From: a virus
Lineage: Duplodnaviria > Caudoviricetes
IMG/VR virus record: IMGVR_UViG_3300037851_000542
Coordinates: 64,001 to 128,000 of that record
DNA length: 64,000 bases
Strand: one strand, 5' to 3'
This document shows, piece after piece, positions 2,782 through 63,929 of the stretch. The position numbers and the translations under genes are program-made. Position 1 is the first letter of the stretch; every line of letters starts with the position of its first letter. The notes beneath the pieces are model-generated. The model saw only the letters and a program-made list of their open reading frames with translations, made no database searches and had not been told where the DNA came from.

Positions 2782-3162
2782 ATGGGAAAATTAAAATTAA
2801 AACACCTTACGCCAGAACAATATGAATTCTATAAGAAAAATATCTTTAACGGTGTGGGTACTAGTTTTGCTGGTATAAATCCTCCCGATTTTAAATTTGA
2901 AGAAGCAGCATTATATCACGATTTAGCCTATTGGGTTGGAGGTAATGAACTAGACAGGTTACAGGCTGACTTTATATTTTTTTATATAGGTGTAAAATGC
3001 ATTTTTAAATCACCTTGGTATATGTGGTTAGGGCTTTCAATAATTTTACCTATTTATAGTCTTTTTGTGTTATTATTCGGTTGGATCTCTTTTGAGTATG
3101 GTAAACCTTCTAAAAACTGGGAAGAACTTCTAGATAAATATAATAAATCTAAAACAAATTAA
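2782..3162 (+). CDS. prokaryotic/phage phospholipase A2-like protein with hydrophobic C-terminus
   Basis: NGVG...PDFKFEEAALYHDLAYWVGG...DRLQADFIF matches the NGCG...HD..Y..GG...R..AD pattern of sPLA2-like proteins. Confidence 0.55.
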   Translation: MGKLKLKHLTPEQYEFYKKNIFNGVGTSFAGINPPDFKFEEAALYHDLAYWVGGNELDRLQADFIFFYIGVKCIFKSPWYMWLGLSIILPIYSLFVLLFGWISFEYGKPSKNWEELLDKYNKSKTN

Positions 3163-3266: not shown

Positions 3267-3368
3267 ATGATGTATTTTGTTATAGGATTTGTTACAGGAC
3301 TTGTTTTTCATAAATATAAAGATAAGCTATTAACTAAAGCTATATCCTTTTTAAAAAAGGATGAATAA
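3267..3368 (+). CDS. 33-aa single-pass membrane peptide coupled to uS2
   Basis: Read by hand: MMYFVIGFVTGLVFHKYKDKLLTKAISFLKKDE*; its TAA (3366-3368) overlaps the uS2 ATG (3368). Too short for the ORF track. Confidence 0.6.
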   Translation: MMYFVIGFVTGLVFHKYKDKLLTKAISFLKKDE

Positions 3369-4297
3369 TGGAACTTAGCAATAGTAACGAAAACGAGAAT
3401 AAAATTAGTAATTTATCTGAAATACCAGTATTTGAGGTAGGATTTCAATCCCTATTGGACGCTAAAGCCTTTTATGGTACCTCGTGTGATGACTGGAATC
3501 CTAAAAGTGCCCCTTTTATCCTGTGTACAAAAACCAATAGACAGCCTAAAAGAAAGGGAAGATCAAAACATACTTATTTAATTGATTTAAGTATAACATT
3601 AAAGTCTTGGAACCGCGCCAAACAGTTTATTGAAAATACCGCATCTGCGGGTGGCAATTTTATGTTTGTAGGTACCCAACCAGAAGCAGGCAAGCTAATA
3701 CGAAGATGCGCTGAACAAGTGGAGGCGCTTCATGTGACAAAAAAGTGGAAGGGAGGAACTCTAACTAATTTAAAAATAACTCTAAACTCTATAAAAAGAT
3801 TAGCTAATCTAGAAAAACTTATTAAAAAACTAGACGATGCCGAAGCAGAAGGTACTTCAATCAATAAGAAAGAATTAAATTTATTAAAAAAAGAACAAAT
3901 TAAACTAGATGAACAGTATGGTGGAATAAGAAAGTTAAAAAAACTACCTAGTGCTTTAATAGTTTTTAACATGCTAGAACATAAAACAGCAATATATGAA
4001 GCTAAAAAATTAGGAATACCTGTTATTTGCGTATCTGATACTTTGGGTAATCCTGAACTCTCTGAATATTTTATAGCCTGTAATACTTCCTCTACCTCAG
4101 CTTTAAGACTCTTTATTATAAATATGTTTTCTGCTATTGAAACGGGATACAGAAAAAGAGACTTTAAACTATCCCAAGAAAATTTAATTAAAGAATTTGA
4201 TACCTTAGAAGAAGATACTAATATGGTAGTGAGTATTACAGCTACTGATATTCCAGTGGTGTACAAAAATAACAAAAACAGCTTGACTGTTAAGTAA
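3368..4297 (+). CDS. rpsB: 30S ribosomal protein uS2 homologue (divergent)
   Basis: Collinear uS2 motifs: LLDAKAFYG...WNPK, LIDL..T, GGNFMFVGT, KWKGGTLTN, IKRL..LE, KKE...L.KE..KL....GGI, LPSAL, AIYEAKKLGIPVI.VSDT..NP. Confidence 0.9.
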   Translation: MELSNSNENENKISNLSEIPVFEVGFQSLLDAKAFYGTSCDDWNPKSAPFILCTKTNRQPKRKGRSKHTYLIDLSITLKSWNRAKQFIENTASAGGNFMFVGTQPEAGKLIRRCAEQVEALHVTKKWKGGTLTNLKITLNSIKRLANLEKLIKKLDDAEAEGTSINKKELNLLKKEQIKLDEQYGGIRKLKKLPSALIVFNMLEHKTAIYEAKKLGIPVICVSDTLGNPELSEYFIACNTSSTSALRLFIINMFSAIETGYRKRDFKLSQENLIKEFDTLEEDTNMVVSITATDIPVVYKNNKNSLTVK

Positions 4298-8685: not shown

Positions 8686-9363
8686 TTGATGTCTGTAGAC
8701 GACCGTGTAAATCTTCAAAAAGCTCTTTACACTATATCACATGAGTTTAAAAATGACATTATAACCCTGCAAGGTTTAATAACTATTCTTGCCCAAAAAT
8801 ATGAAAAAACCTGGGACGAAGACGATAAGGAAAATATAGACTTGTTATTTGAGTCTATTAAACACCAAGAATCATATATTCAAAGTTTGCTAGATTATTC
8901 TAGAGTCAATACTAGAGGCAGACCAAGCTCTATAAAGTCCATACAAGAGCTTATAGCCATAGCGTTAAAGTCTATAAACAACGAACAAGTTAAAATTGAA
9001 TGTAACTGTAATACTAAATTAAAGCTGGACAATGCTCAATTTACAAAAGCTCTAAGTTGTATAATTATTAACTCTATTCAGTACTCTAACTGTAACCCCG
9101 TTATTATTAACTTTAATTGTGATTCTAAAGAAAATGACTATATATTAAAAATTAAAGATAACGGTACTGGTATAGATGATAAGTTTAAAGATCAGATATT
9201 CTCTGTGTTCTCTCCTGGTAAGAATTCGGTATCAGGAATAGGTATGGGACTTGCCACGGTAAAAAAGATAGTAGAGAGGCAAGGAGGTTCTATTTCTTAT
9301 GATTTTAGTACCAAAGAGTTTATAATAATTTTACCAATTGCATTGTGTTACCAAGATGTCTAA
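8686..9363 (+). CDS. sensor-less histidine kinase (HisKA + HATPase_c)
   Basis: H-box SHEFKN, N-box IINSIQYS, G1 KDNGTGI, F-box IFSVF, G2 GIGMGLA. Confidence 0.88.
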   Translation: MMSVDDRVNLQKALYTISHEFKNDIITLQGLITILAQKYEKTWDEDDKENIDLLFESIKHQESYIQSLLDYSRVNTRGRPSSIKSIQELIAIALKSINNEQVKIECNCNTKLKLDNAQFTKALSCIIINSIQYSNCNPVIINFNCDSKENDYILKIKDNGTGIDDKFKDQIFSVFSPGKNSVSGIGMGLATVKKIVERQGGSISYDFSTKEFIIILPIALCYQDV

Positions 9364-9796
9364 TGATTTAATAAATATCTTAATGGTAGAAGACAGCAAA
9401 GCACATGTAAAGCTTACTCAAGAAGCTTTAAAAAGGGCTAAACTTATAGCTAATTTTTACTATGCTAAAGACGGAGAGGAAGCATTAAATTTTATTTATA
9501 AAAAAGGCAATTATTCAAATGCCCCTACACCAAATTTAATACTACTTGATTTAAAGTTACCTAAGTACAGTGGTAAAGAAATATTAAAAATACTAAAAGA
9601 GGATGAAGATTTAAAGTCTATACCTGTAATTATTTTAACTACTTCATCGGCTATACTAGACATAGACGAGTCTTATAAAAGCCACGCTAATAGTTATATT
9701 ATAAAACCTATATCTTTTGAAGGATTGATTCAAACCTTAATGGGTCTAAATAATTTCTGGTTTGTTTTATCTACAAAACCACCAGTTAATGATTAA
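9356..9796 (+). CDS. single-domain response regulator (Rcp1/CheY-like)
   Basis: ILMVEDS, DGEEAL, P.LILLDLKLP (phospho-Asp), IPVIILTTS, ANSYIIKP. Probable ATG at 9356 overlaps the upstream gene. Confidence 0.93.
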   Translation: MSNDLINILMVEDSKAHVKLTQEALKRAKLIANFYYAKDGEEALNFIYKKGNYSNAPTPNLILLDLKLPKYSGKEILKILKEDEDLKSIPVIILTTSSAILDIDESYKSHANSYIIKPISFEGLIQTLMGLNNFWFVLSTKPPVND

Positions 9797-10982
9797 TTAC
9801 ATAATATTTGTATCTTTACTATTATGCTTGCTGTCATACAGGTCAGGTTATAAAAAAGGACTAGACTTAAAAAATAAAACACTAAGTGAGAATCGTCTCT
9901 TAATAGAGGAATTGAATTTTAGGTTAAATTTAATCTTAAATGTTTCTAAAGTAGGTATATGGGTACTAGACATAAAAACCAGAGAATTAAATTGGAACAA
10001 GGAAATGTTTGCAATTTATGAACTAGACCCTAATGAATCCGCTTGTCAAAGTAGATGGTCAGCATCTCTTCTTCCTGATGATTTAGTATTAACATTAGCT
10101 CAGTTAGAAGACAGCATAGCTAATACAAAAGAATTCAATACTTCTTTTAGAATTGTTACAAAAACTGAAGGAATCAGGCATATAAAAGCAATTGGAAATT
10201 TTCTCATAGACGATGATGGACTAGCTTATAAAATGGTAGGTATCAACTACGACAATACAAGTGAAGAAGTATTTAAAAGTAATATTTTATCTTTAAACAG
10301 GGAACTTTTAGATTTTACCTCGATTTTGAGCCACGATCTTCAACAACCTACAACAATAGCTTCTATGTACTTGGATCTTTTGGGCGCTAAAAACCCATAT
10401 TTAGACCCAGACAGTCAGGAGTATTTTAATTATGTTAAAACTTCTTTGAACGAGATAAGTTGCATTTTAAAGGATCTAATAGATCTTATACGTGTAGATA
10501 ACTTAGAAAAAAACCAAGAAGTTAACAAGTCAGAATTATTAAATTTAATAAATTTTAAAGAGATCTTAGAATCTTTAAATTACAACAAGAATTTGATTGA
10601 AATAGTTCTACCCAAAGAAGATTGTTACTTAAGTATGTGCAATAGAGATATTAAATCTCTTTTTACTAACTTAATATCTAACGCTATAAAGTTTTCTGAC
10701 CATAATAGAAAAAACACAATAACAATTACCTCTGATTGTTTAGATAATGGTAAAGTTTTTACAGTATCAGATAAAGGCATAGGTATAGACTCTAGGCATT
10801 TAAATGAGGTAATTAAGCCTTTTTTTAGAGTATACAGTTCTGAGGACTATCCAGGTACAGGGTTAGGTTTAGCTTTATGTGATAAAATAGCAAAAAAATA
10901 CGGAGGTACCTTAAGAATTGAATCTAAATTAGGAGTAGGTACAGATATAATTATAAAATTTCCTTGTCAAGGTACTATATAG
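9789..10982 (+). CDS. membrane-anchored PAS-domain histidine kinase
   Basis: N-terminal TM segment, PAS/PAC (GIWVLDI...PDD...FRIV...GINYD), H-box SHDLQQP, NLISNAIKF, DKGIGI, GTGLGLA. Probable ATG at 9789 overlaps the RR stop. Confidence 0.92.
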   Translation: MINYIIFVSLLLCLLSYRSGYKKGLDLKNKTLSENRLLIEELNFRLNLILNVSKVGIWVLDIKTRELNWNKEMFAIYELDPNESACQSRWSASLLPDDLVLTLAQLEDSIANTKEFNTSFRIVTKTEGIRHIKAIGNFLIDDDGLAYKMVGINYDNTSEEVFKSNILSLNRELLDFTSILSHDLQQPTTIASMYLDLLGAKNPYLDPDSQEYFNYVKTSLNEISCILKDLIDLIRVDNLEKNQEVNKSELLNLINFKEILESLNYNKNLIEIVLPKEDCYLSMCNRDIKSLFTNLISNAIKFSDHNRKNTITITSDCLDNGKVFTVSDKGIGIDSRHLNEVIKPFFRVYSSEDYPGTGLGLALCDKIAKKYGGTLRIESKLGVGTDIIIKFPCQGTI

Positions 10983-14287: not shown

Positions 14288-15259
14288 GTGACAAAAGAAT
14301 ACAAATTTAAAAACTACTATGAATCTGAACCTCAAGTAGATAAAATACTTTATGACGAATCTAAAGAAAAAGTATTAAAAGCTTTTGCTAACATTAGTCA
14401 AACCTATGCAAGAAAACACGTTAGACCAGGTATTGACTATGAAGATCTGTATAATGAAGCCCAACTTGGAGTTTTAGAAGCTATTGAGTACTTTTCTGAT
14501 CCAAGTAAGGTAGAAAAAAAATATCCATTCAAGCAATATGTTCTTTACAAAATTAGGGAAAGAACTTATCAGTACTGCTTGCGTAATGCTATAAAAATAA
14601 AAACTCCTTATTATATTCAGCGCGGTTCAAAACATGTAGCTCAGATTACAACTTTATTAAAAAATGCTCCGGTTGCTTTTCAAATTCTTGGTAAAGAGGA
14701 CGTTAGTGATAGTGATATTAGAGAGTTTTTATATAATGAGAATGAAAGGTTACCTTTAAAATCTGATGAGTTTATTCGTGCTCAAATAAATAAAAATCTA
14801 ACTACAGATCAGTTTAATCAGGTTTATGATAACGTAGTAAATCATAAAAGAGGAAGTGCTCATTCTTTTGTAAAGAAAAACTTAACTGATGTTGGTAAAA
14901 TATTACATATAAAAGAAAAGATCTGGTATAATGCTACAAGTAACAATATGCCATTTAGTAGAGTAATATCTTTAATATTAGAGGCTCGTAGTGCCAGATC
15001 CAGCCACGATTCTGTTTTTTGTGGGACTATAAATGGGCTCTCAGAAAAAAATATTATTTTTGCAGAAATGGTAAAACGGGGCAGGGAAGTTTGTGGGACT
15101 AAAAATTTTGATATATTTTTATCAAATAAATACTTAAATAAAACCTATAAAGAAATCTCAGTACTTTATAACGTCCCTAAGAATGATATAACTGAAATTA
15201 TAAAAAGGTGTATAAAAAGTCTAAAAGAAGACGACATAATAAACGAATTTAACGATTAA
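14288..15259 (+). CDS. phage-encoded sigma70-family RNA polymerase sigma factor
   Basis: Region 2: EDLYNEAQLGVLEAIEYF.DP...PFKQYVLYKIR...IKTP; region 4 HTH: NKTYKEISVLYNVPKNDITEIIKRCIKSL; GAGGA RBS with GTG start. Confidence 0.82.
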   Translation: MTKEYKFKNYYESEPQVDKILYDESKEKVLKAFANISQTYARKHVRPGIDYEDLYNEAQLGVLEAIEYFSDPSKVEKKYPFKQYVLYKIRERTYQYCLRNAIKIKTPYYIQRGSKHVAQITTLLKNAPVAFQILGKEDVSDSDIREFLYNENERLPLKSDEFIRAQINKNLTTDQFNQVYDNVVNHKRGSAHSFVKKNLTDVGKILHIKEKIWYNATSNNMPFSRVISLILEARSARSSHDSVFCGTINGLSEKNIIFAEMVKRGREVCGTKNFDIFLSNKYLNKTYKEISVLYNVPKNDITEIIKRCIKSLKEDDIINEFND

Positions 15260-22713: not shown

Positions 22714-23387
22714 TAAAATATAATTCCGATAACGAAGTTTTAGAAGCTTTAAAAAAAGAATTTAGTAGAGACTCCGAAAAGGTTTTATCTATTGGGTATG
22801 GCAAAGGTAAGAAAGATTTAGTTTACTTGTCCGTTGAAAGTGTAAGAGCACGTTTAGATGACGTTCTTGGTTTAAACTGGAATTGGGAAACTATTGAAAC
22901 TGTTTATTCTCAGTTTATAAAAGCCCCATCTAAACAGAAGCTGGACGACGGTTCCTACGGTGTTCCTGCCGGAGCAGGTCCTGTCTCGATACCTACAGTA
23001 TCTGTTACAGGCAGACTCACCTTACACTTACCTTCAGGGATTGCTGTATTTAGAGACGGTAACGGTGGAAGCTCTTTAGACAAAGGTACTGGACCTGGTG
23101 ACCCTGAGAAAATTGCAGCTAGTGATGCTTTTAAGAGAGCTGCCTGGTTTTTTGGTATAGGGGCATACTTAAGAAACGGTACTGCTTCTATAGATAATAC
23201 TTCAGTTATGGACTCAAGCAGACAGGGTTTTATTCCTCAGGTGCCAAACCAGCAGCAGCAGAATTGGAACCGAAATACAACAGTAGGAGGAGTTGTTCCC
23301 CACAATAACACTTTTACTGGACCTACGAATCATCAACAAGAACCTATAATTCACCAGACAGGTGGGTTAAAACCGGGCAGACCATAA
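22710..23387 (+). CDS. Rad52/Rad22-family single-strand annealing protein (Sak-like)
   Basis: YLSVESVRARLDDVLGLNWNWE...VTGRLTL...DG.G...EKIAASDAFKRAAWFFGIGAYL, plus a disordered Gln-rich tail. Confidence 0.88.
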   Translation: MIKYNSDNEVLEALKKEFSRDSEKVLSIGYGKGKKDLVYLSVESVRARLDDVLGLNWNWETIETVYSQFIKAPSKQKLDDGSYGVPAGAGPVSIPTVSVTGRLTLHLPSGIAVFRDGNGGSSLDKGTGPGDPEKIAASDAFKRAAWFFGIGAYLRNGTASIDNTSVMDSSRQGFIPQVPNQQQQNWNRNTTVGGVVPHNNTFTGPTNHQQEPIIHQTGGLKPGRP

Positions 23388-25228
23388 TGGAAATAAAACC
23401 TGTTTATATTAAAGATCTTTATAGTAAGATAAATATAATTGTTTTAAATAAAAGAGAAAGCGTAAATGAGTTAAAAAAGGTTAGTGTAAAGATAACAGAA
23501 GAGGACTACAAGCTGTGGGTATTAAATACCTGTGTTATAGGTATAAATAATATATCCTCTTATTTAAAGGACGGGACTGCTTCTTTAATATCCCAACTAC
23601 AGGAAGCTAATGAGGATATTTATAAAAGAGTAATAGCACTAAATGAATTTTTAGATCCTAAAAACTTGTTTATTAGCAACAAACGTGAACTTACGCACAA
23701 CAATACCAAACACCTTTTAACAAAGACTAAAAACTGGTCAAAAGAAGGTACATATAAAGAGATAACTACTGTAGATTTTCAGAACTTTTTAGATATATGC
23801 TCTGCATCTAGTTTGATGGAGTACACTCAAGTACCTGAAACCTTTAAAGATTTAAATTTAATTGTAAATATAAGATCTTTTTCTGAGAATGATCTCACTG
23901 CTCTTGTAAACTTAATGGATCTGGAAACAGACAGTCATTTAAAGTACTCAGTACTAGCAGAATGTATAGATAACTTCTCAGAAATTATTACGTTAATTAT
24001 AGACGAGGTAAATAAAAGTAGACTGGATATGGTTAAAACTGTATCCAGTCTTTACAGTTTATGCATCAAGCATAACTCTTTTCTTTATTTAAATTTAAAT
24101 GAAGCAAAGTATTTAAAGAAAGAACAGATAACTTCGTCATTTTCACAGACTAGTTCTGCTTTTAATAGCTTGTTTGAAAAATTAGAAGCTGACGAAGAAG
24201 AGGAAGAATTAAAAACTAAACCACTTAAAAGTGTACCACTAGCGCAGGTAACTGAACTAGAAGATAAACTAAAAAGTAGCATTTATGGGCAGGATGATGC
24301 AATTAAAGCTATTTACAATTCCGTAAAGCGTGCGCATATGGGTTTAAAACCTCAAAACAGACCTATAGCTGCGTTTTTATTCTATGGTCCTACTTCTACT
24401 GGTAAAACGGAGCTAGCTAAGGTTCTAGCCGAGTGTTTAAGGGGTTCTGCGTCAGAAGGTCTTGTAAAAATACCTTGTGGTACTGTCTTGAATGAATCTC
24501 ATACTATACAAACTTTAATTGGTGCGCCCCCTAGCTACGTAGGGCACGAATCTAAAAGTCTATTTGGAGCGCATTTTTCTAAGGATCCTAATTTAAAAAT
24601 TATATTATTTGATGAGATAGACAAAGCACATCCTAAAGTTTTTGATTTCTTGTTAGAAGCAATGGATGAAGGTAATATGATGGATAGTAAAGGTAACTGT
24701 TTAAACTTAAGAGATTCCATATTAATCTTTACTTGTAATACTGGACAAAAAGAGGCTATAAAAGCATCTAAAGCCGCAGGTTTTACATTAAATACTAGCA
24801 ATGAGAGCCATCAACATACAGTAGAAGAAATATATAAAACCACTATAGACAATAAATTAGTAGCTGAATTTAGAGCTAGACTTAACGGGCAATTCTTCTT
24901 CCGGAGGTTAAGTGAGAGTGAACTAATACTCACAGGTAAAAAATACCTTAATGACTTTTTTAAGGTCTGGGAAAAAGAAAATAAATCTATAGTGAATGTT
25001 TCTGAAGAAGTTTATAACTTTATGCTAAAAAAATGTATAAGCAGTCAGAAAGATTGTCACGCTAGACATTTAAATCACTTTATTGACGATCAGATTATAG
25101 ATAAGTTAGGAGATTTGCTAATAGATAAAAATATTACCCCATCTTCTATAAAGTCAATAGACATTACTATAGAAAATGATTTAATTGACTTTCATATAAT
25201 AGAAAAAAAGAAAAAGCTAAAAAAGTAG
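23387..25228 (+). CDS. ClpA/ClpB-like AAA+ ATPase with only the D2 module
   Basis: IYGQDDAI, RPIAAFLFYGPTSTGKTELAK, LIGAPPSYVG, IILFDEIDKAHP, DEG...D.KG, FRARL; about 270 aa of unrelated N-terminus. Confidence 0.88.
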   Translation: MEIKPVYIKDLYSKINIIVLNKRESVNELKKVSVKITEEDYKLWVLNTCVIGINNISSYLKDGTASLISQLQEANEDIYKRVIALNEFLDPKNLFISNKRELTHNNTKHLLTKTKNWSKEGTYKEITTVDFQNFLDICSASSLMEYTQVPETFKDLNLIVNIRSFSENDLTALVNLMDLETDSHLKYSVLAECIDNFSEIITLIIDEVNKSRLDMVKTVSSLYSLCIKHNSFLYLNLNEAKYLKKEQITSSFSQTSSAFNSLFEKLEADEEEEELKTKPLKSVPLAQVTELEDKLKSSIYGQDDAIKAIYNSVKRAHMGLKPQNRPIAAFLFYGPTSTGKTELAKVLAECLRGSASEGLVKIPCGTVLNESHTIQTLIGAPPSYVGHESKSLFGAHFSKDPNLKIILFDEIDKAHPKVFDFLLEAMDEGNMMDSKGNCLNLRDSILIFTCNTGQKEAIKASKAAGFTLNTSNESHQHTVEEIYKTTIDNKLVAEFRARLNGQFFFRRLSESELILTGKKYLNDFFKVWEKENKSIVNVSEEVYNFMLKKCISSQKDCHARHLNHFIDDQIIDKLGDLLIDKNITPSSIKSIDITIENDLIDFHIIEKKKKLKK

Positions 25229-53860: not shown

Positions 53861-56694
53861 TACTGTTTATCTGTTCTCATCCATGTTTTTAAATATATAG
53901 TACTGCTACCTGTCTGATTAGATGGTGGAAAAGTATACCTTAAATATACAGACTTAGTATCTCCTGGTTGGGTGTCTTTTAATACTAAAGTATACGGAAA
54001 TTTAACACCTTGGATTATAGCCTGATCTTGTCCAGTACCGTCTGATTTTAAAGTAAATTTAAACTGAGTAAAATCTGTCTTTGGTAATACTATACCATTT
54101 AAAGTATTTATATTCCAAGGAGTACCTGGCACTCCATAGAAAGTATCATCCCTAAATATAGGTGTATAATTAACAACACTGGATGGTATATTTCCAGCCC
54201 TGCTTATAGATAAAGCTTTGTATTTCTCATTTGCTGATACTGTCTGACAAGCGCTAAAAATTTCATAAGTATGGTTTGGTGCCAGTTTTTGAATCTGTAT
54301 GGCTGGAATAACCCCACTTAATATCAACACGCTATTTAAATATAGTCTATACGTTGCGTTAGCCCAATCTATAATTAAACTTACTGGATAGAAATTACCA
54401 GTAGTTAATGAAACTGTGGCACTGCTACTTACAGAACCGTTAAAAAACTTAATAGCCTTTAAAACGCCTCCGGAATCGGTAGAAGCTCCAAACTCAATAT
54501 AAACAGAGTCGTTATCCGTCCTAACCAGAGAGTCTCCATTCCTCTTAGGAGCGTCACCGGATACAAGAGAATCTACGTAAGGGGCTATGTAAAACCTAGA
54601 ATAGTGAGTTGAGTTTAATTGACGGTTGGATGCAGGATTATAAAAGAAATTATACTGCATTACCCCTTGAGTAGAAAATGGAAATTGAAAAGTAGATACA
54701 GCAGAATTAAATGTATTCCCTACATTCTGATGTGATAAAATTAAGGAATTACCACTGACTGAAATACTACTTCCTCCTGTTGTTAAGTTCAAAAACTCTG
54801 TAGTACTTAACGGTACGTTAAAAAGCTGTAAACTGTTTTGACCAGTTGGTTTTGTAGTAAAGCCTCTGACCTCAATGGTTTCTACCCCCAAACTATTAAC
54901 AGCATCTAATACAACCCCATCTTGCTTATCATATTGTATGTAAGGCTGCACAAATAAATTATTATCATCACTTGAGAGTTTGATTGGAGGAGAAGTCCAA
55001 GTACCACTTGTTACACCTAAACCGTTAAAAGTAATTTCATCTACTACTTTTAATATACCTGTTCTTACGCTTATGTTCTCATCAAAGTCTACAGCCAAAA
55101 CTGCCCCATTTTTGCAGACTCCTGCTGCCCCGCATCTCCAAAATGTGCCTAAACTCGGCACAGTAGCAATTGCTTCAGCATCTGTAATAATAGTGTACGA
55201 CGACCAACTTAAATTTGTAACATCGAACTTATAACCAGTATAATTTTCGTTTGGAGACGTACCTGCTGTGTGCAGTATAACCTGATTATGATCAGGGTCT
55301 GATGACAGTCCTCTAATACTAGCTGCATTTGAATTAAAAGCAGTGGCTAAGAATGTCCATAAATTGTTTGTAGGTTCATACTTTAAAAAAAATGGTTGTC
55401 CTGAACCGTCCCTTGTACTTACATATATAGTATTGTCATGACTTATCATTTGAGTTGCTGTTGAATCTGGTGCAATAGGACAGTTTGCTAATTGCGTAAT
55501 AACTGAAGTTATAATGTTTATTTTCCATAATTGGTTAAAGGGCGCTACATTGTAAGTAGTAGATCCTCCCAAAATGTAAAGATCGTTGTTAATTATAGCT
55601 ACTTGCCTAACAGTAGAATTAAAAAAGCCGGAAGTAGTAGCAAATGTAGAAAAACTATTTGCAGAGATTGAATATTTATAAACTAATTGCGTATTTTTTC
55701 CATTTAAAAAATAAATACTATCGTTTTTATCATAAGCTAAGCTGCTTCCATCTCTTTCTCCAGTTAAGACTGTATAAGGTGGTAATCCTGATACTCTTCT
55801 TGTATTAAATATTGGATCAAAAATCTGAATTGATTGATCTAAAAAATTGGCAGTAGCTAATTTTTGAATACCATCTATATCAGTAATTTCTACAATTTGC
55901 TTATTAGTATATGTGTAGTTGTCATTAAAAGAACCACTACTGTAACTTTTTAAACTACCAAGCCCTAATGTACTAAAGTCTACTGGATTATTAAACCATA
56001 GTGCGTTATCCTTTATTTTAAGATTCTTTAAATCTCCTAGTTCCCAAGGGATACTTTCTGGAACACTAATTAAATCATTAAACTGATAAAAAGTACCAGT
56101 AGGTGTAAGACTCAACTCTAGATTTTCTAATACTTCAAATTCTGTATCTGGATCTATGCACACAAAAATATCAGCTATTAAATTTCCACTGTTTGTTATA
56201 GGTATTTCTATAATCTCACTGGTAGAGGTTAATACATCTCCAACTAGAGTTAAATTATCTAAATTGCCGTTTGCTCCAAATCGGATCTCATCGTCAGTAT
56301 TAATAACATTGATTTGATTTACTTGTCCCGAAAACCCTAGGAAACTGTCTATTATTTGAATAAATCTAGGTTCGGTGTACCCTGACTGGGTAGGGCTTAC
56401 TACAACAAAACCCCCTGATACTGAAGGGGCTGCAGAATACATTGAATTTAATGTTCTACCATATTTTATTTGAACCCCTGTAGCAGTTAGTGGTGTATTT
56501 TTATACTGAATTTGATAAATACTAGATTGAGTGCCTAGATCTATGTCTACTCCAACCCTTTGATTAATTACAGGGATTACAGCGTCTGTCAGACTTAATA
56601 TATTGGAAATATCATTAGGTGTGAAGAAATACTGACTTCCAGTTAAAGTAGTATTATAAATTATAGAGCTATCTAGAAGATCAAATTTAGTCAT
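53860..56694 (-). CDS. virion structural protein with Kelch-like beta-propeller
   Basis: Repeats AYDKNDSIYFLNG, NNDLYILGG, DNTIYV, KYEPTNNLWTFLA. Confidence 0.75.
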   Translation of the reverse strand: MTKFDLLDSSIIYNTTLTGSQYFFTPNDISNILSLTDAVIPVINQRVGVDIDLGTQSSIYQIQYKNTPLTATGVQIKYGRTLNSMYSAAPSVSGGFVVVSPTQSGYTEPRFIQIIDSFLGFSGQVNQINVINTDDEIRFGANGNLDNLTLVGDVLTSTSEIIEIPITNSGNLIADIFVCIDPDTEFEVLENLELSLTPTGTFYQFNDLISVPESIPWELGDLKNLKIKDNALWFNNPVDFSTLGLGSLKSYSSGSFNDNYTYTNKQIVEITDIDGIQKLATANFLDQSIQIFDPIFNTRRVSGLPPYTVLTGERDGSSLAYDKNDSIYFLNGKNTQLVYKYSISANSFSTFATTSGFFNSTVRQVAIINNDLYILGGSTTYNVAPFNQLWKINIITSVITQLANCPIAPDSTATQMISHDNTIYVSTRDGSGQPFFLKYEPTNNLWTFLATAFNSNAASIRGLSSDPDHNQVILHTAGTSPNENYTGYKFDVTNLSWSSYTIITDAEAIATVPSLGTFWRCGAAGVCKNGAVLAVDFDENISVRTGILKVVDEITFNGLGVTSGTWTSPPIKLSSDDNNLFVQPYIQYDKQDGVVLDAVNSLGVETIEVRGFTTKPTGQNSLQLFNVPLSTTEFLNLTTGGSSISVSGNSLILSHQNVGNTFNSAVSTFQFPFSTQGVMQYNFFYNPASNRQLNSTHYSRFYIAPYVDSLVSGDAPKRNGDSLVRTDNDSVYIEFGASTDSGGVLKAIKFFNGSVSSSATVSLTTGNFYPVSLIIDWANATYRLYLNSVLILSGVIPAIQIQKLAPNHTYEIFSACQTVSANEKYKALSISRAGNIPSSVVNYTPIFRDDTFYGVPGTPWNINTLNGIVLPKTDFTQFKFTLKSDGTGQDQAIIQGVKFPYTLVLKDTQPGDTKSVYLRYTFPPSNQTGSSTIYLKTWMRTDKQ

Positions 56695-59600
56695 TATTTA
56701 AGCGTCCACCTAGTGGTTAAAAATAGCTCTCTTAATAAATTTTCACGATTTATAGGGAAATTTATTTTTATATATACAGTAACTTTTTCTCCCTGCTCTA
56801 TACCATAAAATTTAAATGGGATATTTAAATCATCTATATTATAAAACGTTACATTGTCTATTGATAATAATACATTATCTCTTATATGTCTAATTTTATT
56901 AAAATCTATCTTTTTAGGTATACTGGAATATAGTATATTCTCTATTCCACCAGTAAGGCTTTTAACCTCAGCGGAAAGGTATGTAGCAGTTATACCATTA
57001 TAGAAATCAGATGAGGAGAAGGACACACTGGAAAGAGGGGATATACCTCCTATAATAAGATTGCTATTTTTACTGTTTTCACTAAACCAAGGTTGATTAA
57101 AGTCCATAATAAACTCATCGTCTATATAAAAAATAACATTAGCTGAGTTTTTTATGTCGTTTATATTTCCATCAGCAGACCAAGACACTGCTAATTTAAA
57201 TGGTGTAAATGGTTTAATTTTATTTATATACCCTATATTATAGTTGTATTTTAAATCGGCGTTATTGGTAAACACAAATTTAAATCCAAAGCGAGAATGA
57301 TAAAATAGATTTAAAGATTCATTTAAATTATTAGCTATTGTAAATATTGTAAAGGCTTCTTCCTGTTTATATGTAGTCCTGCCCAGTTTATTCCAATCGG
57401 GTGTTACTATAGCTTCAAAGTAACCTTGATTTAAATTAACATTAGTTATTGGAAAAAATAACAGCTCAGAGTTATTTAAATACAAAGTTTTATTAAATTT
57501 ACTCTGAATGTTAAAGTCTTCTCTTACAATATTAAAGTTATCTATCCATACATTTATAGGGGCTGGTGTTGTAGACACAGGTTTTAATGCTATTTCAAAA
57601 TACTCTATAGGTCCTGTTTTAAAGTCGGTTGTGGTTTCTAAATCTATTACTGATGGTGTACTTAAATTTAAGTCTCCAAAAGATTGTTCGTCCGCTAATC
57701 TAAATTTTAACTTAACTAACTCAAAGCTATTTGTATTAATTCCACTAACTGAAGATAATGACCACTTATAGAATTCTTCTGAATTTTTACCTAATTTTAT
57801 ATAGGAGTTTGACCAGTCCATTAAATCGGAATCAGCTCTAATATAAAAAGACAGGTAATCCTGAAATGACCATAAAGGGTCATTGCTTATAGGAAAGGTA
57901 CCATAGCAACTAGCAATACCACTATTTAAGGTAGGGTAAGTTAATTTTAAAGACCTTCTTCCACCAACCCTATTAGCATAATCTGAGGATAAGGTTAATT
58001 TAGGAATAGCTTCGTCCGGTGCTTTAAATATTTTAAAGTTATTTAAAGTTATGCTGCTATTATCTGGATCTTGAGACTGTGACTCTGTTATTAATAGTCT
58101 TGCTCCTGACACTACTATAGGTTCTGTGAAGTAGTGAATATAGGGCAAAGAGTTATTAAAAAAGAATTCATTGTCAGTGCCTCCAGACGTTACCAGATCT
58201 GTTTCTGTAAAAAAATCAAGCCACGAAGTATTAGAGTTTGGGTCTTGTCCTGTAAGTGTTTGAAACTTTATAGTGTTAGGTAAGGACTCACTGCTCCCCT
58301 CTACCTGAAACTGGAAACCAATGATACTGACAGGATCATAGTTTATAGTTGTTGTAGAGGACGTAGTGATTAAATCGTACGGTACTCCATTTTCATTCTC
58401 AAATGTTTGAGATCCTGAGCTTACTATGCCACTCGGCGTTCCAAATACTCTCCATAGAAAACCAGTTGAGCCTGACATAGTAGTGTAGGTATTTTCCTCA
58501 CCATCAAACACCGCTAAAGGTGAACTGATCTCTTGTAAGACACTATCTGCGCCTGAAGTAGTACTGTAAAGTATTCCATTATAGTTTCGGTCTATGTCTT
58601 TTATAATTGCTATGTCTATTAGCTCAGGTGCGCCTGACACATTAAACCATTCTGGAAATTCTGTAAAATCTACCCTATCCGTATAAGTATAAAATCCGTC
58701 ACTACGCAAATCTAAGGTACTTGCTATAAACTGAGAAGCTTCATACTTAGGACTGTTTATAATACCCCCACTAACAGTAAAGTTTTCATTTTTAAAAGCG
58801 AACCATTTAGCCGTACTTATAACTTTAGAATCTTTATTGTAGTCTGACCATTGTCCCCACTCTATAAGGTTAGGATCTTCTTGCCAAGAATTTACTAGTA
58901 TATACTCTGAAGAGCCTCCCCATCCGGTAAAAGCATTAGAGCCTTTTTTAAATTCTACATTATTCTTATCAACTAGTTTATAGTCCCCTATGCTGAAAGA
59001 CTCTGCTAATCTTATAGATATTATAGGGTATTCTGTTTGTGTAATATAAGTATTTAAATTGTTATCTGACAGTATGTTGCCTAAATCTTTCCAAATTAAT
59101 GGGTTTTTATAAGGTAATGATATATCTGGGTATATTCGCAAAGCCTCTAAATATTTGATGCCTGTAGTGGTAGTAGGAGTCTCTTCAAATAAAACCCATC
59201 TAACTTTGTTTATTGTTGTGTTGCCCCAAGTAACCTGAGACACATCTGGTGTATCAGAATCAGAGAACTGTACTCTATTTTTGTCCCAAAGAAGTTTATT
59301 AGTATTACTATAAATATTTAAAATATCTAAAGAAGTCGTATTTTCAAGATCAATTGCAGCTACGGTAGTTTGTTGAGTAGGATACACAGATGAGTTTGTT
59401 ATATTAGTCTCACCATTGTTTCCAGTAAGATTAAAAGAGGGTTGAAAGTTTATAACTCTACTAGTTTCATAACTACTACTGCCCCCAAAAAAGAAATGCT
59501 TTATGTTAACGTTTGTAGCGGTACTGCTAGCAGTTCCATCCTTACTCCAAACATTTCCAACTACAATCTTTAATTGTCCAATTAAACTTAATGAGTTTAA

Positions 59601-62600
59601 ATCAATTTCATAAAATTCATTTCCTGCCCATTCTAGTTCGCCTTGTTTAGCTCCGTTGACAGCATCAGCATATGAAAACCTTAAAACATCAACACCACTT
59701 AGAGGATTAAATATTCTTTCTAAGTTTAAAGTATAGTCAGTTAAATTAGAACTAATTCCATCTTTAGTAATACCGTTTGGACAGTAAGTAGGACCGGATA
59801 AGCAGAACATTAACTCATTGTCTATTTCACCAGACAAACTATCTATAATCCTATAATGGTGCCAATTTCTGGTTATTGAGGCTGCAGACCAATAAGCCCT
59901 ATCGCTAATTATATAAATCATTCTTCCTGTAGAATCTGTAATGCCAACAAAAGACCCTATAGACCCTGAATCACTTCCAACATTGTAGTTGGCAATAATC
60001 CTTGCATTAAAACTTCCTGTTATGTGCCAATTAGACCTTAAAATTGCAAAAATAGGATTAGTAGGTGAGCCTGTCGGTCCTGGATCTGGTTCCAGTTTAA
60101 ATCCTGGTGCTGTACGCTTTATTCCTAACTGAGGATAGTTAGTGCCCAGTACCGTCCACTTTGATCCGTCTATAAAATTGTAAATAAAAGAATCAGATTC
60201 TGTTAGATATTCGTAGGCTTTGTATATTTTCTTATTTGCTGCTAAATTTATTAGTCCAAAAGTTTTAGCATTTATAGCCACATTGTCAGAAACATAAAGT
60301 GACTTATCTGAGTCCTTATACAGTATACCTGGTGGTCCTATTTCTGGAACTAATATGTCGTTTAAAGTATTAGCAGAAGTTTTTAACAAGATTGAGTCTG
60401 TTCTAAGATCTTTTCCTATGTTTATCTCTAAATCAGACGTATTACAAGTATTATTAACTATGTCTACTTCATATGTTTCAGAAAAGCCACTTATAATAGG
60501 CTCAATGTCTAACACATCTACGCACAGATTATCATTTTTATATAAAATTAAATCATCCAGTGGGGAAGCATATATGGAGCTAAGTTCCAGTGTGCTACTT
60601 GGAAAAGTCCTTAATCTTATATACTTAATAGGCTTATGTATTAAAAAGGAAACCGTATTATCTTCTAATACCTCATAAGGTGCTTTAAAAAATAACTGAT
60701 CTTCACCTGCTACAAAAAGCTCTAATACATCTTCTAAGTTTATATCTACTAACGTTTCTGCAAATAACTCTATCTCACTTATCTTTGTAGACTTGTGAGC
60801 TATACATCCAAAATTAAAAGCCGTTGTTTCAACTGGTGTAAATTCTTTTTCAAGTACATTATACGGAAATCTTCTATAGAACTCATAAGCAATGACCGCA
60901 TCTAGATCTTGATTGTTTAAAAAACCATCATAGGTTTTAAAAAAATGTCTATATAAAGCCTCGTTAGTATTTAAATTTTCTTTTAGTAATGTAGTTTTAT
61001 CTAGACTTACCTTAGTGTATTCTATTTTATCACCTAGTCCTATTATGTGAAACAAGTTGGAACTGCCATCCCCATTAAGTAAATTTGAGTCTAGATACTC
61101 AAAATAATAACCTTCACTGTGTGGAAACTCTTTAAAATAAATCTTAACTTTGGATATAGTTACTGGACTGTTCCAGTTAAAATTAAGTGAATAGGGATCG
61201 TCTTCAAATTCAGAAAGCTCTATATGCAAGATGTTAGAAGCAAACTCCTCTGTATCTACCCACTCACCGTCTCCGCTAATATAAAAATAAGTCGAGCTAT
61301 TAGAGTTTTGTTCAAAGCTACCTACTACCCCATTTGATGCATACTTATTACCGTCATAAATAGCATTTAAATTGTATCCAACATTATTATGCGTAAGTGT
61401 GAGGATATCCCCAGTGCTTGTATTTTCTACTCTGTGTTTATGCGTGCCAGAAACAGAAGCGCTAACATTCAGTCCGTTTCCTGCGGATGTTAAAAGATTA
61501 TAAGTTCTATTTTCAGATCTGTGTCTACCTTTTATTTCTATATTTTCTATGGCTGATTCTACTGGAAGTTCTAGGTCTATTACTGCTACATTTTGTATTT
61601 TACTGGATCTACCGTATAGACCAATACCAAAAATATTATTACCTTTCGGTATATTTAAAGAGTTAATAGTATCAGTTACTTCTCCTTGAACTTCCAAATA
61701 TGTGGCTTCTAAAAGGTATATATCATTAGCCCCTCCATATAGGGTACTAGGGTTATAGATACCTATCATATCACCTTTATTAAGGTACCAGTTAACTTCT
61801 AATCTATAGGTATCTGGTGAGGTTGTATACAAAACCCCGTTTTCTTGGACGCCTATTATCTGCTCATTAAGTAAAGTTAAATTACCACTAATGTTAGGTC
61901 TAAAGTGTTTTAATTTAGCTGTATTAGAGATAGAGTACTCTAAGTTACTAGCAAAAAATAAATTAACACTATCGTCTAAAAATATATCGTTTCCTACAAC
62001 CCTGTCAATTACATAAGTACCATTACTAACATAACCAGATGTGTTAATAATTAATAAATCACCCTTTACTATATTAACGCTAGTTATATCGGAGTTTGTA
62101 AGTGAAAATATGTTTGTATGTGCAAAGCCGTCCGATCCTTCTAGTTTCACTCCAATGGAGTTTGGAAGGACTCCGTGAAAATAAACTTCATCAATGAAAC
62201 CTTCACTGGTAGCTCTATTTAAAAAATCTACAAATGTTTTTCCAGACCCGTCTATCTCTACTCTTCTGCTTAGTGTTTCAGCAGAGGGGGACCCGATTTC
62301 TACGGAAGGTACTTGTGGACTTTGAATAAAATATGCATTTTTATCTTCTGAGGTTTTTTCTTTTTTTAAGTTTTCCAGTAAGTACGCTTTTTCCCTAAAG
62401 CTATTATTAAAATTAAATCCAGCAGCGTGAGGTCTTCCAACTTCGGCTACATAATTAGAAAAACCTAATTGATTACTCAATTGGGTAGGTTGTAATACTA
62501 CTGAACTTGTAGAACCATAAGTACCTGATTTTATTGTAAAAGTTCCATCTTTTAATATAACTTCTGCATTAACATAACCACCAAGATCGATACTAGATAT

Positions 62601-63929
62601 ATTAGTTTGTAATAGCGTCCTTAAATCATCTAAAGACAACGCTAAAGTTTGCGGTAATTTAAATACAGCGTCACCATAGTTATCTATGTTGACAACTAGT
62701 GTATCATTAATACCTTCTAAAATATCTAACCGATCAAAAGATAAGGGTTCTCCTGTAATATAACCTTGTTGACCTATTCCGGTACAGACATTAGCATCTA
62801 ATACTTCAATAATTAAAAAGTCATCGCAGTAGGTACTTGAACCTGTTTCTAAAGTCTCCAGTGAAAAACCCTCGATAGGTCCTGAATAAACCTTTGGTAC
62901 CTTATTATCTACCAATTCGCCATTGATTGTTACGGAAAAAACATTACTGGAAATATCTATATTTATAAAAATATCATACCATTTTCCGTATTCGTAGATG
63001 AATGGAACTTCGAAGTTTAAAAATGTATTTAAAATAGATTTATATTTTATGCGCAAATCCGAATCAAAGAGTAACTCTATTGCGGAGTAGCTACTAATAA
63101 CACTTGTTAAAAGTTTAAGCACTGACCTACCACTTTCTGGTCTTAACTTTGCAGAAAAGTATCCTTTAATTAATGGTTGAGGTAGTGTATAGACTGCTCT
63201 TGGTCCATTTAGTGAAGGGTGTGAGTTATTAAGCAAAACAGAGGCGTCTAATAAATTAGAAGGATTGTTTACTACCTTTACTGTTCTTTCTACACTTGAT
63301 AAGGCTAATGAAAACTCTGATGGACTATTGTTTAAATCAGCCAGTGAAAAGCTAGAGATATATCTGACTTCTTCTGTTTGATTTTCACAGCTATCCAAAC
63401 ATATGGTAAAACTAGAAGATTGTATTTTAATAAACTCTAGAAATATAGAATCGTTGTTACCTCCATCTATTGCAAAAAATAACTTTATATTAGATATTAA
63501 ACCTACCCAAGTTGATACAGGTCCCATATCGAGATTGTATGTATGCCAACTTCCATCCGAAATTAAGTCAAAGGTTATAGATTTTGTGTCAGTAAATGCT
63601 GGATCCGAGGTTGTTGTAAATTGTAACTTACCTAAAGAAGCAGAGGTACTATCATTATACTTACTATATTTATATCTAAAGGATACTTGGGTGTACTGTG
63701 CGGAATCAAAACTTACTAAGTTCTGTGACCTAGTTATAGAAGGAGAAAAACCAGACGAGTTTAAAAATAAAAATCTTCCAGATACACCGTACATTGATAC
63801 ATTTTCTAAAAAATCCCACCCTTTAAGGTCGCGTTCAGTATCAAAAATAGAATAATGTATTATATTCTCATTCTCTTTACATACGTTGGCGTTACGTATT
63901 ATTGCGTTACTTAATACGTTCTTTTTCAA
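56694..63929 (-). CDS. giant (2411 aa) virion structural protein with beta-sandwich/LamG-like domains
   Basis: Uninterrupted 7.2 kb ORF; N-terminal DGSWHTYNLDM...W.GLI..I carbohydrate-binding-like module; C-terminal QGYFEAIVTPDW...FKLAVSW...FYIDD...LIIGG LamG-like region. Confidence 0.8.
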   Translation of the reverse strand: MKKNVLSNAIIRNANVCKENENIIHYSIFDTERDLKGWDFLENVSMYGVSGRFLFLNSSGFSPSITRSQNLVSFDSAQYTQVSFRYKYSKYNDSTSASLGKLQFTTTSDPAFTDTKSITFDLISDGSWHTYNLDMGPVSTWVGLISNIKLFFAIDGGNNDSIFLEFIKIQSSSFTICLDSCENQTEEVRYISSFSLADLNNSPSEFSLALSSVERTVKVVNNPSNLLDASVLLNNSHPSLNGPRAVYTLPQPLIKGYFSAKLRPESGRSVLKLLTSVISSYSAIELLFDSDLRIKYKSILNTFLNFEVPFIYEYGKWYDIFINIDISSNVFSVTINGELVDNKVPKVYSGPIEGFSLETLETGSSTYCDDFLIIEVLDANVCTGIGQQGYITGEPLSFDRLDILEGINDTLVVNIDNYGDAVFKLPQTLALSLDDLRTLLQTNISSIDLGGYVNAEVILKDGTFTIKSGTYGSTSSVVLQPTQLSNQLGFSNYVAEVGRPHAAGFNFNNSFREKAYLLENLKKEKTSEDKNAYFIQSPQVPSVEIGSPSAETLSRRVEIDGSGKTFVDFLNRATSEGFIDEVYFHGVLPNSIGVKLEGSDGFAHTNIFSLTNSDITSVNIVKGDLLIINTSGYVSNGTYVIDRVVGNDIFLDDSVNLFFASNLEYSISNTAKLKHFRPNISGNLTLLNEQIIGVQENGVLYTTSPDTYRLEVNWYLNKGDMIGIYNPSTLYGGANDIYLLEATYLEVQGEVTDTINSLNIPKGNNIFGIGLYGRSSKIQNVAVIDLELPVESAIENIEIKGRHRSENRTYNLLTSAGNGLNVSASVSGTHKHRVENTSTGDILTLTHNNVGYNLNAIYDGNKYASNGVVGSFEQNSNSSTYFYISGDGEWVDTEEFASNILHIELSEFEDDPYSLNFNWNSPVTISKVKIYFKEFPHSEGYYFEYLDSNLLNGDGSSNLFHIIGLGDKIEYTKVSLDKTTLLKENLNTNEALYRHFFKTYDGFLNNQDLDAVIAYEFYRRFPYNVLEKEFTPVETTAFNFGCIAHKSTKISEIELFAETLVDINLEDVLELFVAGEDQLFFKAPYEVLEDNTVSFLIHKPIKYIRLRTFPSSTLELSSIYASPLDDLILYKNDNLCVDVLDIEPIISGFSETYEVDIVNNTCNTSDLEINIGKDLRTDSILLKTSANTLNDILVPEIGPPGILYKDSDKSLYVSDNVAINAKTFGLINLAANKKIYKAYEYLTESDSFIYNFIDGSKWTVLGTNYPQLGIKRTAPGFKLEPDPGPTGSPTNPIFAILRSNWHITGSFNARIIANYNVGSDSGSIGSFVGITDSTGRMIYIISDRAYWSAASITRNWHHYRIIDSLSGEIDNELMFCLSGPTYCPNGITKDGISSNLTDYTLNLERIFNPLSGVDVLRFSYADAVNGAKQGELEWAGNEFYEIDLNSLSLIGQLKIVVGNVWSKDGTASSTATNVNIKHFFFGGSSSYETSRVINFQPSFNLTGNNGETNITNSSVYPTQQTTVAAIDLENTTSLDILNIYSNTNKLLWDKNRVQFSDSDTPDVSQVTWGNTTINKVRWVLFEETPTTTTGIKYLEALRIYPDISLPYKNPLIWKDLGNILSDNNLNTYITQTEYPIISIRLAESFSIGDYKLVDKNNVEFKKGSNAFTGWGGSSEYILVNSWQEDPNLIEWGQWSDYNKDSKVISTAKWFAFKNENFTVSGGIINSPKYEASQFIASTLDLRSDGFYTYTDRVDFTEFPEWFNVSGAPELIDIAIIKDIDRNYNGILYSTTSGADSVLQEISSPLAVFDGEENTYTTMSGSTGFLWRVFGTPSGIVSSGSQTFENENGVPYDLITTSSTTTINYDPVSIIGFQFQVEGSSESLPNTIKFQTLTGQDPNSNTSWLDFFTETDLVTSGGTDNEFFFNNSLPYIHYFTEPIVVSGARLLITESQSQDPDNSSITLNNFKIFKAPDEAIPKLTLSSDYANRVGGRRSLKLTYPTLNSGIASCYGTFPISNDPLWSFQDYLSFYIRADSDLMDWSNSYIKLGKNSEEFYKWSLSSVSGINTNSFELVKLKFRLADEQSFGDLNLSTPSVIDLETTTDFKTGPIEYFEIALKPVSTTPAPINVWIDNFNIVREDFNIQSKFNKTLYLNNSELLFFPITNVNLNQGYFEAIVTPDWNKLGRTTYKQEEAFTIFTIANNLNESLNLFYHSRFGFKFVFTNNADLKYNYNIGYINKIKPFTPFKLAVSWSADGNINDIKNSANVIFYIDDEFIMDFNQPWFSENSKNSNLIIGGISPLSSVSFSSSDFYNGITATYLSAEVKSLTGGIENILYSSIPKKIDFNKIRHIRDNVLLSIDNVTFYNIDDLNIPFKFYGIEQGEKVTVYIKINFPINRENLLRELFLTTRWTLK

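Follow-up and report, generated by a model that had tools for sequence, protein, structure and literature searches.

A large phage encodes a full-length ribosomal protein uS2 with replacements at the zinc-binding and bS1-contacting residues

The uS2 gene and its viral setting

The DNA considered here, hereafter the window, is a stretch of 64,000 nucleotides that corresponds to bases 64001-128000 of a 259,994-bp IMG/VR record of a tailed phage (IMGVR_UViG_3300037851_000542). Near its beginning, at positions 3368-4297 of the plus strand, lies a complete coding sequence for ribosomal protein uS2, 309 amino acids long and followed by a stop codon, which was recognized from the list of open reading frames (ORFs), from protein family models, from an AlphaFold2 model and by structure comparison with Foldseek. 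The ORF starts with ATG, and an AGGA motif is found 9-12 nt 5' of the start. The protein matches the family PF00318 (Ribosomal_S2) with 173.9 bits (cut-off 26.1) along the full length of the profile (1-216 of 216), as well as the bacterial equivalog model TIGR01011 (rpsB_bact) with 169.8 bits (cut-off 76.3), and the best of its relatives among solved structures are bacterial uS2 chains (E ~1e-32). It is the single PF00318 match of the 260-kb genome.

The AlphaFold2 model, built from an alignment of 83 sequences, has a mean predicted local distance difference test score (pLDDT) of 91.3 and a predicted template modelling (TM) score of 0.83, and it contains both domains of the uS2 fold, the alpha/beta globular domain and the protruding coiled-coil hairpin. 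Compared with ribosome-bound uS2 of Escherichia coli, Thermus thermophilus and Staphylococcus aureus, this predicted model, used as the query, reaches TM scores of 0.90-0.94 normalized to the solved uS2 chain, with root-mean-square deviations of 2-3 Å. The product of the gene is a full-length bacterial-type uS2, as a first-pass annotation made from the sequence alone had proposed; it is basic, with an isoelectric point (pI) of 9.2. No PHROGs family matches it, no Rfam element is detected in the window and hence none near the gene, and promoter and terminator scans around the gene gave nothing above shuffled expectation.

Since the ribosomal genes reported for the PhiMa05 contig have been disputed, the viral nature of a "jumbo phage" contig needs proof when a ribosomal protein is found on it. 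The record has a CheckV completeness of 95%, a GC content of 33% and a coding density of 91%. It encodes the large terminase subunit (TerL), adjoined by a portal protein (ESM-Atlas features 0.96; structure TM 0.56-0.61 to portal clusters), and close to uS2 there are two tail fibre or spike proteins with S74-type chaperone ends, a single-stranded DNA-binding protein and an endolysin. DnaB, PolA, an exonuclease, ribonucleotide reductase (RNR), PhoH and RtcB are also encoded, and a major capsid protein was looked for in the record without one being identified. TerL and PolA share at most 27.5% identity with any deposited phage.

Cellular comparators carry tsf, the gene of elongation factor EF-Ts, downstream of rpsB, the gene of uS2, and tblastn found no tsf in the whole 260-kb genome nor in any phage-type contig. 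S1-domain proteins and bS21 were likewise searched for in the phage genome, and none was found. The composition of the uS2 gene is typical of the phage (GC 32.4%; 23.5% at third codon positions), and so is its codon usage, whose relative synonymous values correlate with r = 0.865, at the 52nd percentile among phage genes. In all three respects the gene is indistinguishable from the other phage genes.

Among 5.8 billion clustered proteins, only two close relatives of the phage uS2 were found, P0002 (90% identity) and P0003 (63%), to which an exhaustive HMMER search over 1.84 billion representatives added P0121 (50%); every cellular uS2 is at most 39% identical. P0002 occurs on four short contigs, each from a separate sample in JGI, ENA or Logan. 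The contig of P0121 (L020, 21.6 kb, from an independent sample) is syntenic with the window across a whole block, in which a gene for a 126-residue protein, uS2, a fibre-like protein, an endolysin, a histidine kinase, a response regulator, a PAS-histidine kinase and an S74 tail fibre follow one another in the same order, with identities of 50% for the endolysin and 62% for the response regulator. The uS2 gene is therefore stably kept in this phage lineage. Compared with the P0002 gene, the window gene shows a ratio of nonsynonymous to synonymous substitution rates (dN/dS) of 0.054 at a dS of ~1.4 (Nei-Gojobori), and strong purifying selection therefore acts on the phage uS2; more distant pairs give 0.17-0.31, with dS saturated.

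Host rpsB does turn up in viral collections, through misassembly, on the flanks of prophages or on non-viral contigs misclassified as phage. A scan of IMG/VR with the phage protein as a single query gave no match, and a scan with an alignment (A1) gave five loci, of which three are host rpsB-tsf flanks (L027, L028 and L029) and one is truncated. A tblastn search of GenBank phages returned 10 records at ~30% identity, and in all four that were inspected for tsf (OQ572403.1, CAKLQF020000002.1, OR844988.1 and OR846595.1) this gene lies directly downstream of uS2, which marks the DNA as that of a host; one of them carries map-rpsB-tsf, three are flagged UNVERIFIED, and contaminated assemblies or contigs of a host are the probable explanation.

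For the present locus such an origin is very hard to credit. The 260 kb are devoid of tsf and encode terminase, portal, tail fibres and endolysin; composition and codon usage are those of the phage; identity to cellular uS2 is low; and the neighbourhood recurs in an independent contig, with P0002 found in several samples. Misassembly and host contamination were rejected on these grounds. The first-pass annotation had likewise placed the gene in an AT-rich phage genome lacking a neighbouring tsf, a description that the complete record bears out, and the concern it raised about host DNA, or a copy nearly identical to a host rpsB, came to nothing.

Residues replaced in the phage protein

Residues of the phage uS2 were mapped by alignment to E. 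coli uS2, and their conservation was taken from 264 other uS2 sequences. At a threshold of 90% there are 43 conserved columns, 29 of which are kept by the phage protein, among them W23, P25, W96, GG98-99, L101, TN102-103, KKE131-133, G150, P158, E175, IP181-182, P193 and N203, and 14 of which are changed. All of the motif changes listed in the first-pass annotation are present in this alignment: relative to E. coli, FGHQTRYWNPKM becomes YGTSCDDWNPKS, RWLGG becomes KWKGG, DTNSDP becomes DTLGNP and NDD becomes NTS.

The positions concerned are well described in bacteria. E. coli uS2 binds Zn2+ through His18, Asp188, Asp204 and Asp205, the N-terminal helix of ribosomal protein bS1 stacks on uS2 Phe32 and packs against His15, and Lys43 and Asp39 of bS1 contact uS2 Asp188, Asp205, Asn203 and Arg208 (Byrgazov et al., PMC4288201). 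These contacts were confirmed on the ribosome by D'Urso et al., who added a stack of His18 on bS1 Phe79 and noted that, across Pfam PF00318, His18 is conserved "100% of the time" (PMC10123108). The residues that anchor bS1 are a feature of bacteria that use bS1, though they are conserved more widely.

In the phage protein, the rewritten histidine motif KAFYGTSCDDWNPKS (3464-3508, plus strand, as for all features of this gene) has Lys33 for Gly13, Phe35 for His15, Thr38 for His18 and Ser47 for Met27, so the Zn2+ ligand that also stacks on bS1 Phe79 and the residue that packs against the bS1 helix are both replaced. Leu52 (3521-3523) stands for Phe32, the aromatic residue of the pi-stacking with bS1 Phe5 and Phe9. 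In the segment DTLGNP (4037-4054; DTNSDP in E. coli), the ligand Asp188 is kept as Asp224 and Asn190 is changed to Leu; in P0003 and P0121, Asp188 too is replaced, by Asn. In NTSSTS (4082-4099; NDDAIR in E. coli), Asn203, a contact of bS1 Lys43, is kept as Asn239, and three residues are lost: Asp204, a Zn2+ ligand, to Thr240; Asp205, both a Zn2+ ligand and a contact of bS1 Lys43, to Ser241; and Arg208, which forms a salt bridge to bS1 Asp39, to Ser244.

Altogether one of the four Zn2+ ligands (Asp188) and one of the four other bS1 contacts (Asn203) are retained. Neighbouring conserved residues are changed as well (N190L, D165N and K73Q). The substitutions are common to P0002 and P0003 and take a slightly different form in P0121, at positions conserved in 93-100% of cellular uS2; P0006, a cellular relative discussed below, keeps H15, H18, D188, N203, D204 and D205.

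The loop KWKGGTLTN (3743-3769; RWLGGMLTN in E. coli) keeps Trp, Gly-Gly and Thr-Asn and changes R95 and L97 to Lys. In the coiled-coil helical hairpin (residues 135-187; 3770-3928), formed by helices 135-158 and 167-187, the conserved KKE tip (K131/K132/E133) is kept. Judged by this mapping, the sites that the first-pass annotation had called remodelled coincide with the published Zn2+- and bS1-docking surface and not with the RNA-binding core. The changes that it described are real; what it had not seen is that they hit residues which in bacteria bind Zn2+ or touch bS1, nor had it placed the gene in a wider clade of phage uS2.

The basic insertion that it had noted is found exactly where it was placed. 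The segment TKTNRQPKRKGRSKH (residues 54-68; 3527-3571) contains 11 extra residues, by which the beta1-beta2 hairpin grows to 18 residues, against seven in E. coli and in 64 of the 66 cellular sequences sampled. Residues 53-67 have a net charge of +7, and the insertion is conserved in P0002, P0003 and P0121. In the AlphaFold2 model it forms an extended beta-hairpin (strands 51-56 and 68-72) with a pLDDT of 93-98. It starts two residues past the position of Phe32 and therefore extends the hairpin that bears the bS1 helix site.

Both ends of the protein are longer than in E. coli, by the same alignment: the N-terminal extension comprises 23 residues compared with three, and the C-terminal one 48 compared with 16. 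Such extensions are not unusual by themselves, because cellular uS2 has them too, as in P0006 with its N-terminal extension of 52 residues. In the phage protein, the N-terminal extension (residues 1-23; 3368-3436) is acidic and rich in Asn and Ser, is modelled with a pLDDT of 55-66 and is poorly conserved in the clade. In the C-terminal extension (4154-4294), the last helix reaches to about residue 284 and is followed by a tail with a conserved motif, VSITATDIPVVYK (residues 288-300; 4229-4267), which is present in P0002, P0003 and P0121 and, in weaker form, in P0125 and P0126. A complex predicted for residues 21-290 of the phage uS2 (alignment A2) with residues 1-90 of E. coli bS1 had an ipSAE of 0.01, which counts neither for nor against binding.

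A wider group of phage uS2 genes and the accompanying genome

The next-best matches to the phage uS2 (E 1e-43 to 1e-33) lie, wherever their context could be retrieved, in phage-like surroundings without tsf. One is on a 153-kb IMG/VR contig (L026) with RtcB, a CCA-adding enzyme, a DUF932-like protein, a hybrid kinase, an RNA ligase and a sigma factor; another, P0012, is on a 170-kb contig that also encodes a clamp loader, nucleoside diphosphate kinase and GroEL; and P0150 sits on a contig of 220,754 bp. The same holds for P0125, P0126, P0145, P0133 and P0139. In the uS2 of L026 (9875-10759 of that contig), which is 294 residues long, the His/Asp pocket is intact and the N-terminal extension (KKVNKKALRRKERERRQAEKRAKE) is strongly basic.

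In a tree of 88 sequences sampled as best matches to the phage protein (IQ-TREE, LG+C20 PMSF), which has long branches and a bootstrap short of full convergence, all 11 uS2 with phage or phage-like context fall into one 22-member group (ultrafast bootstrap 84, SH-aLRT 92). All known cellular comparators, namely rpsB-tsf loci, Chlamydiota, Gammaproteobacteria and E. coli, are placed outside it, so the phylogeny with bacterial uS2 that the first-pass annotation had proposed separates the phage-context sequences from the sampled cellular ones.

The nearest cellular neighbours of the group form a three-sequence branch, with support of 89/96 for the joint split, that includes P0006, the uS2 of an rpsB-tsf-pyrH-frr locus in a metagenome-assembled genome (MAG) of a freshwater member of the Bdellovibrionota. 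From the tree, Bdellovibrionota are a possible donor lineage of the phage uS2. They are not taken as the host, because of the best-match sampling, the long branches, the incomplete bootstrap and a mismatch in GC content, which is 47-48% in the MAG and 24-39% in the phage contigs.

Within the group, the residues discussed above change repeatedly. His18 is replaced in 12 of the 22 members and Arg95 in 17, compared with one of the 66 cellular sequences in each case, and an insertion in the beta1-beta2 hairpin, usually a basic one, is present in 10 of the 22 against one of the 66. By parsimony on the tree, both the replacement of His18 and the hairpin insertion require at least four changes within the group. 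Different phage lineages appear, from these alignments, to have modified uS2 in different ways.

This recurrence bears on a plainer account of the gene, according to which the phage uS2 would merely sustain the assembly of 30S subunits after host transcription is shut off or rpsB-tsf is repressed; its odd residues would reflect long divergence, or a fit to a host in which bS1 docks differently, and the behaviour of the ribosome would stay unchanged. That uS2 is a late, limiting and loosely bound protein of the 30S subunit speaks for such a spare part, as do the retention of the core fold and of the conserved motifs and the common carriage of bottleneck components by phage genomes; most uS2 of the phage group also keep the Asp pocket, so that carrying a uS2 does not need its loss. 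Divergence alone accords poorly with substitutions at positions that are nearly invariant in cells, the nearest relatives (P0006) included, and that have become fixed across the subclade under strong purifying selection. Nor does it readily yield His18 losses and basic insertions that recur within the phage group and are almost absent in cells, a pattern that suggests directional, phage-specific pressure on this face of the protein. The spare-part account is for these reasons considered rather unlikely, though it deserves to be kept in view.

The phage uS2 clade has apparently been undescribed so far. The first-pass annotation had set uS2 apart from the ribosomal proteins typical of viruses, and a full-text search of open-access papers and bioRxiv found no report of a phage uS2. 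Mizuno et al. (2019) had PF00318 among their search models (PMC6375957); uS2 is not mentioned in the main text of that study, and the "Ribosomal_S2" strings in its detection table are all Ribosomal_S21. Al-Shayeb et al. (2020) list S4, S1, S21 and L7/L12 only (PMC7162821), and the first 200 of the 257 supplementary files of that paper contain no S2, rpsB or PF00318.

Several other genes of the phage deserve mention. The gene for the 126-residue protein (2782-3162, plus strand) lies directly 5' of uS2 and, by tblastn, has the same position in the contigs of P0003 (L016) and P0121. Its product has a hydrophobic C-terminal half and a weak match to DUF6787 below the cut-off; in a search for conserved partner genes it alone was common to three clade members, and it could be linked functionally to uS2. 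On the other side of it, at 1371-2612 of the minus strand, is encoded a protein of 413 residues with an N-terminal hydrophobic leader and Pro/Thr/Ser-rich repeats (TPTK/TPSK units) over ~200 residues, which has no family match and of which a 78%-identical fragment adjoins uS2 in another contig (L013). The two-component genes of the syntenic block (8686-10982, plus strand) comprise a HisKA/HATPase kinase of 225 residues, a receiver-only response regulator of 152 residues (9338-9796) and a PAS-HisKA-HATPase kinase of 406 residues, and the trio is found in the same order in L020 at 39-62% identity. Further along the plus strand, the region 14288-15259 has a weak match to Sigma70 region 2 (E 3e-4, below the cut-off) that suggests a sigma-like factor, and 23387-25228 encodes an AAA_2 (Clp/Lon-like) ATPase of 613 residues, labelled an ATP-dependent protease in PHROGs.

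In the remainder of the record, ARAGORN detected no tRNA gene in 260 kb, despite an RtcB-type RNA ligase at 251411-252763 of the genome; RtcB or RNA ligase genes are also found near uS2 in L020, L026 and L033. TerL (838 residues; genome 194856-197372, L009:6856-9372) and the large subunit of RNR (925 residues; genome 216019-218796, L010:8019-10796) are each matched by their families at two sites between which a long part stays unmatched; to go by the pattern of matches, this part may be an inserted element such as an intein or a homing endonuclease; two free-standing HNH/homing endonuclease genes are present in the genome. Three ORFs are giant, encoding 2411 residues at 56694-63929 of the window (minus strand), 1790 residues at genome positions 128316-133688 and 2542 residues at 168730-176358, and many further ORFs of 400-950 residues have no PHROG or Pfam match, which marks the lineage as highly divergent.

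A possible role on the ribosome and comparison with known systems

In bacteria, uS2 enters the 30S subunit as one of its last proteins, lies at the hinge between head and body, contacts helices h35-h37 and h26 of 16S rRNA, with h35-h37 touched by its coiled-coil domain, and is indispensable for the binding of bS1 (PMC10931766). It dissociates readily from the ribosome (PMC7797042), and in ribosomes without it bS1 and bS21 are missing too and leaderless mRNA is translated better (PMC10491246). That phage copies can enter ribosomes on expression is established for bS21 and bL12 (PMC6375957).

Against this background, the reading preferred here, and held with middling confidence, is that the phage protein serves as a replacement uS2 on host 30S subunits and alters the docking of bS1 and the recruitment of mRNA. 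During infection it would occupy the place of uS2 next to the mRNA exit channel, at the hinge between head and body; since uS2 joins late and detaches easily, the phage copy could be added to new subunits late in their assembly or enter by exchange. The core bound to 16S rRNA would be kept, the outward Zn2+/bS1 face would be rewritten, and the basic 11-residue loop would be added beside the site of the bS1 helix. On ribosomes with the phage uS2, the docking of bS1 would then be altered or lost, a new positively charged loop would lie near the mRNA exit, with the conserved C-terminal motif on the outer face, and the choice of mRNAs at initiation would change. We infer these steps, from incorporation through lost or altered Zn2+ and bS1 binding to mRNA selection, from the sequence and the predicted fold.

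A different use of the protein, suggested by the first-pass annotation alongside the swap, is that of a regulator or decoy acting off the ribosome, which would bind the host rpsB-tsf leader and thereby shut off uS2 and EF-Ts, or bind another RNA or a host factor. Bacterial uS2 does repress its own rpsB-tsf operon, and an excess of uS2 lowers EF-Ts and thereby slows growth (PMC10931766); the basic character of the phage protein, with its added +7 loop, would suit RNA binding. Yet the uS2 of E. coli represses rpsB-tsf effectively only together with bS1, the contacts of which are replaced here, and rpsB leader structures are narrowly distributed (PMC10931766). No Rfam element lies near the uS2 gene, and a full two-domain fold, coiled coil included, maintained at a dN/dS of 0.05 seems more than a small decoy that binds RNA would require. 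A role off the ribosome is accordingly judged improbable, and less likely than the swap into 30S subunits, which is favoured because the whole fold and the rRNA-facing motifs are kept and the changes lie on the published bS1/Zn2+ surface.

Several observations weigh against replacement with altered bS1 docking. Full loss of the pocket is limited to the four-member subclade of the window protein, the other phage uS2 keeping Asp188, Asp204 and Asp205, so that a reading built on the bS1 interface may not explain phage uS2 in general. Two conserved basic residues that are maybe rRNA-facing are changed (K73Q and R95K), which could weaken ribosome binding. A Shine-Dalgarno (SD) core (4-mer) precedes ~27% of the crudely called phage ORFs, compared with 9% in the background, and their leaders are A/U-rich. 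In E. coli, mRNAs with such A/U-rich, SD-poor leaders depend on bS1. Excluding bS1 alone would thus not obviously help a phage with leaders of this type, and the new loop or tail may therefore stand in for a function instead of only abolishing it.

A bolder version of the replacement reading can be offered only tentatively, and we doubt it more than we credit it. In it, a diverse clade of large phages would have kept its own uS2 since an early acquisition in order to make "private" ribosomes, on whose 30S subunits it would displace the host protein, and in the lineage of the window Zn2+-dependent docking of bS1 would have been abolished, with the basic loop and the C-terminal motif recruiting phage mRNAs or a phage factor. 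If this were true, a universal ribosomal protein, and not a small accessory one, would turn initiation away from host messages and towards those of the phage.

Because the changed residues are the Zn2+ site and the bS1 anchor of two structural studies, they supply a residue-level hypothesis for the reprogramming of initiation by phages, and the group as a whole shows recurrent loss of an "invariant" His and recurrent basic insertions in one hairpin. Such natural variants could also reveal the purpose of the zinc pocket of uS2, which the structural authors left open.

Compared with known systems, the present record differs from that of PhiMa05, in which six ribosomal proteins were reported, likewise on a contig of jumbo size (PMC13157829). 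The viral nature of that contig was challenged on the grounds that it has neither a terminase nor a coherent virion module and that it carries bacterial-like genes (PMC13623518); here terminase, portal, tail fibres and endolysin are encoded, and the uS2 is far from cellular ones and conserved in related phage contigs.

With bacterial uS2 (rpsB) the phage protein shares the two-domain fold and the retained WNPK, W-x-GG-x-LTN, KKE, P158, E175 and N203. Unlike it, the phage copy is encoded by a phage without a tsf partner and at a distance of 39% identity or less, with three of the four Zn2+ ligands and Phe32, His15 and Arg208 replaced, and with a basic hairpin insertion and a C-terminal tail motif of its own.

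A further parallel is offered by the uS2-deficient ribosomes of the E. coli mutants rpsB11 and rpsB1 (PMC10491246), a likeness of mechanism only and not of homology. If the phage uS2 cannot anchor bS1, both cases would have in common the absence of bS1 from the uS2 site and an altered selectivity of initiation. In the mutants uS2 itself is absent, bS21 is lost and the dynamics of the head increase (PMC10491246), whereas with the phage uS2 in place the head-body bridge and the binding of bS21 might persist.

The closest comparison is with phage bS21 and the other ribosomal proteins of large uncultured phages, which are likewise maintained under purifying selection (PMC6375957, PMC7162821, PMC9723584). 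Both bS21 and uS2 are located on the mRNA-exit and initiation side of the 30S subunit and bind loosely and late, which makes substitution of the host copy plausible for either. Virus-encoded ribosomal proteins are thus known, and the well-studied ones are small, bacteria-specific and peripheral (bS21 and bL12), whereas uS2 is a universal, essential protein of ~25-35 kDa, which a group of large phages maintains here under strong purifying selection; unlike the cases of phage bS21, it has a defined partner-binding interface that has been rewritten.

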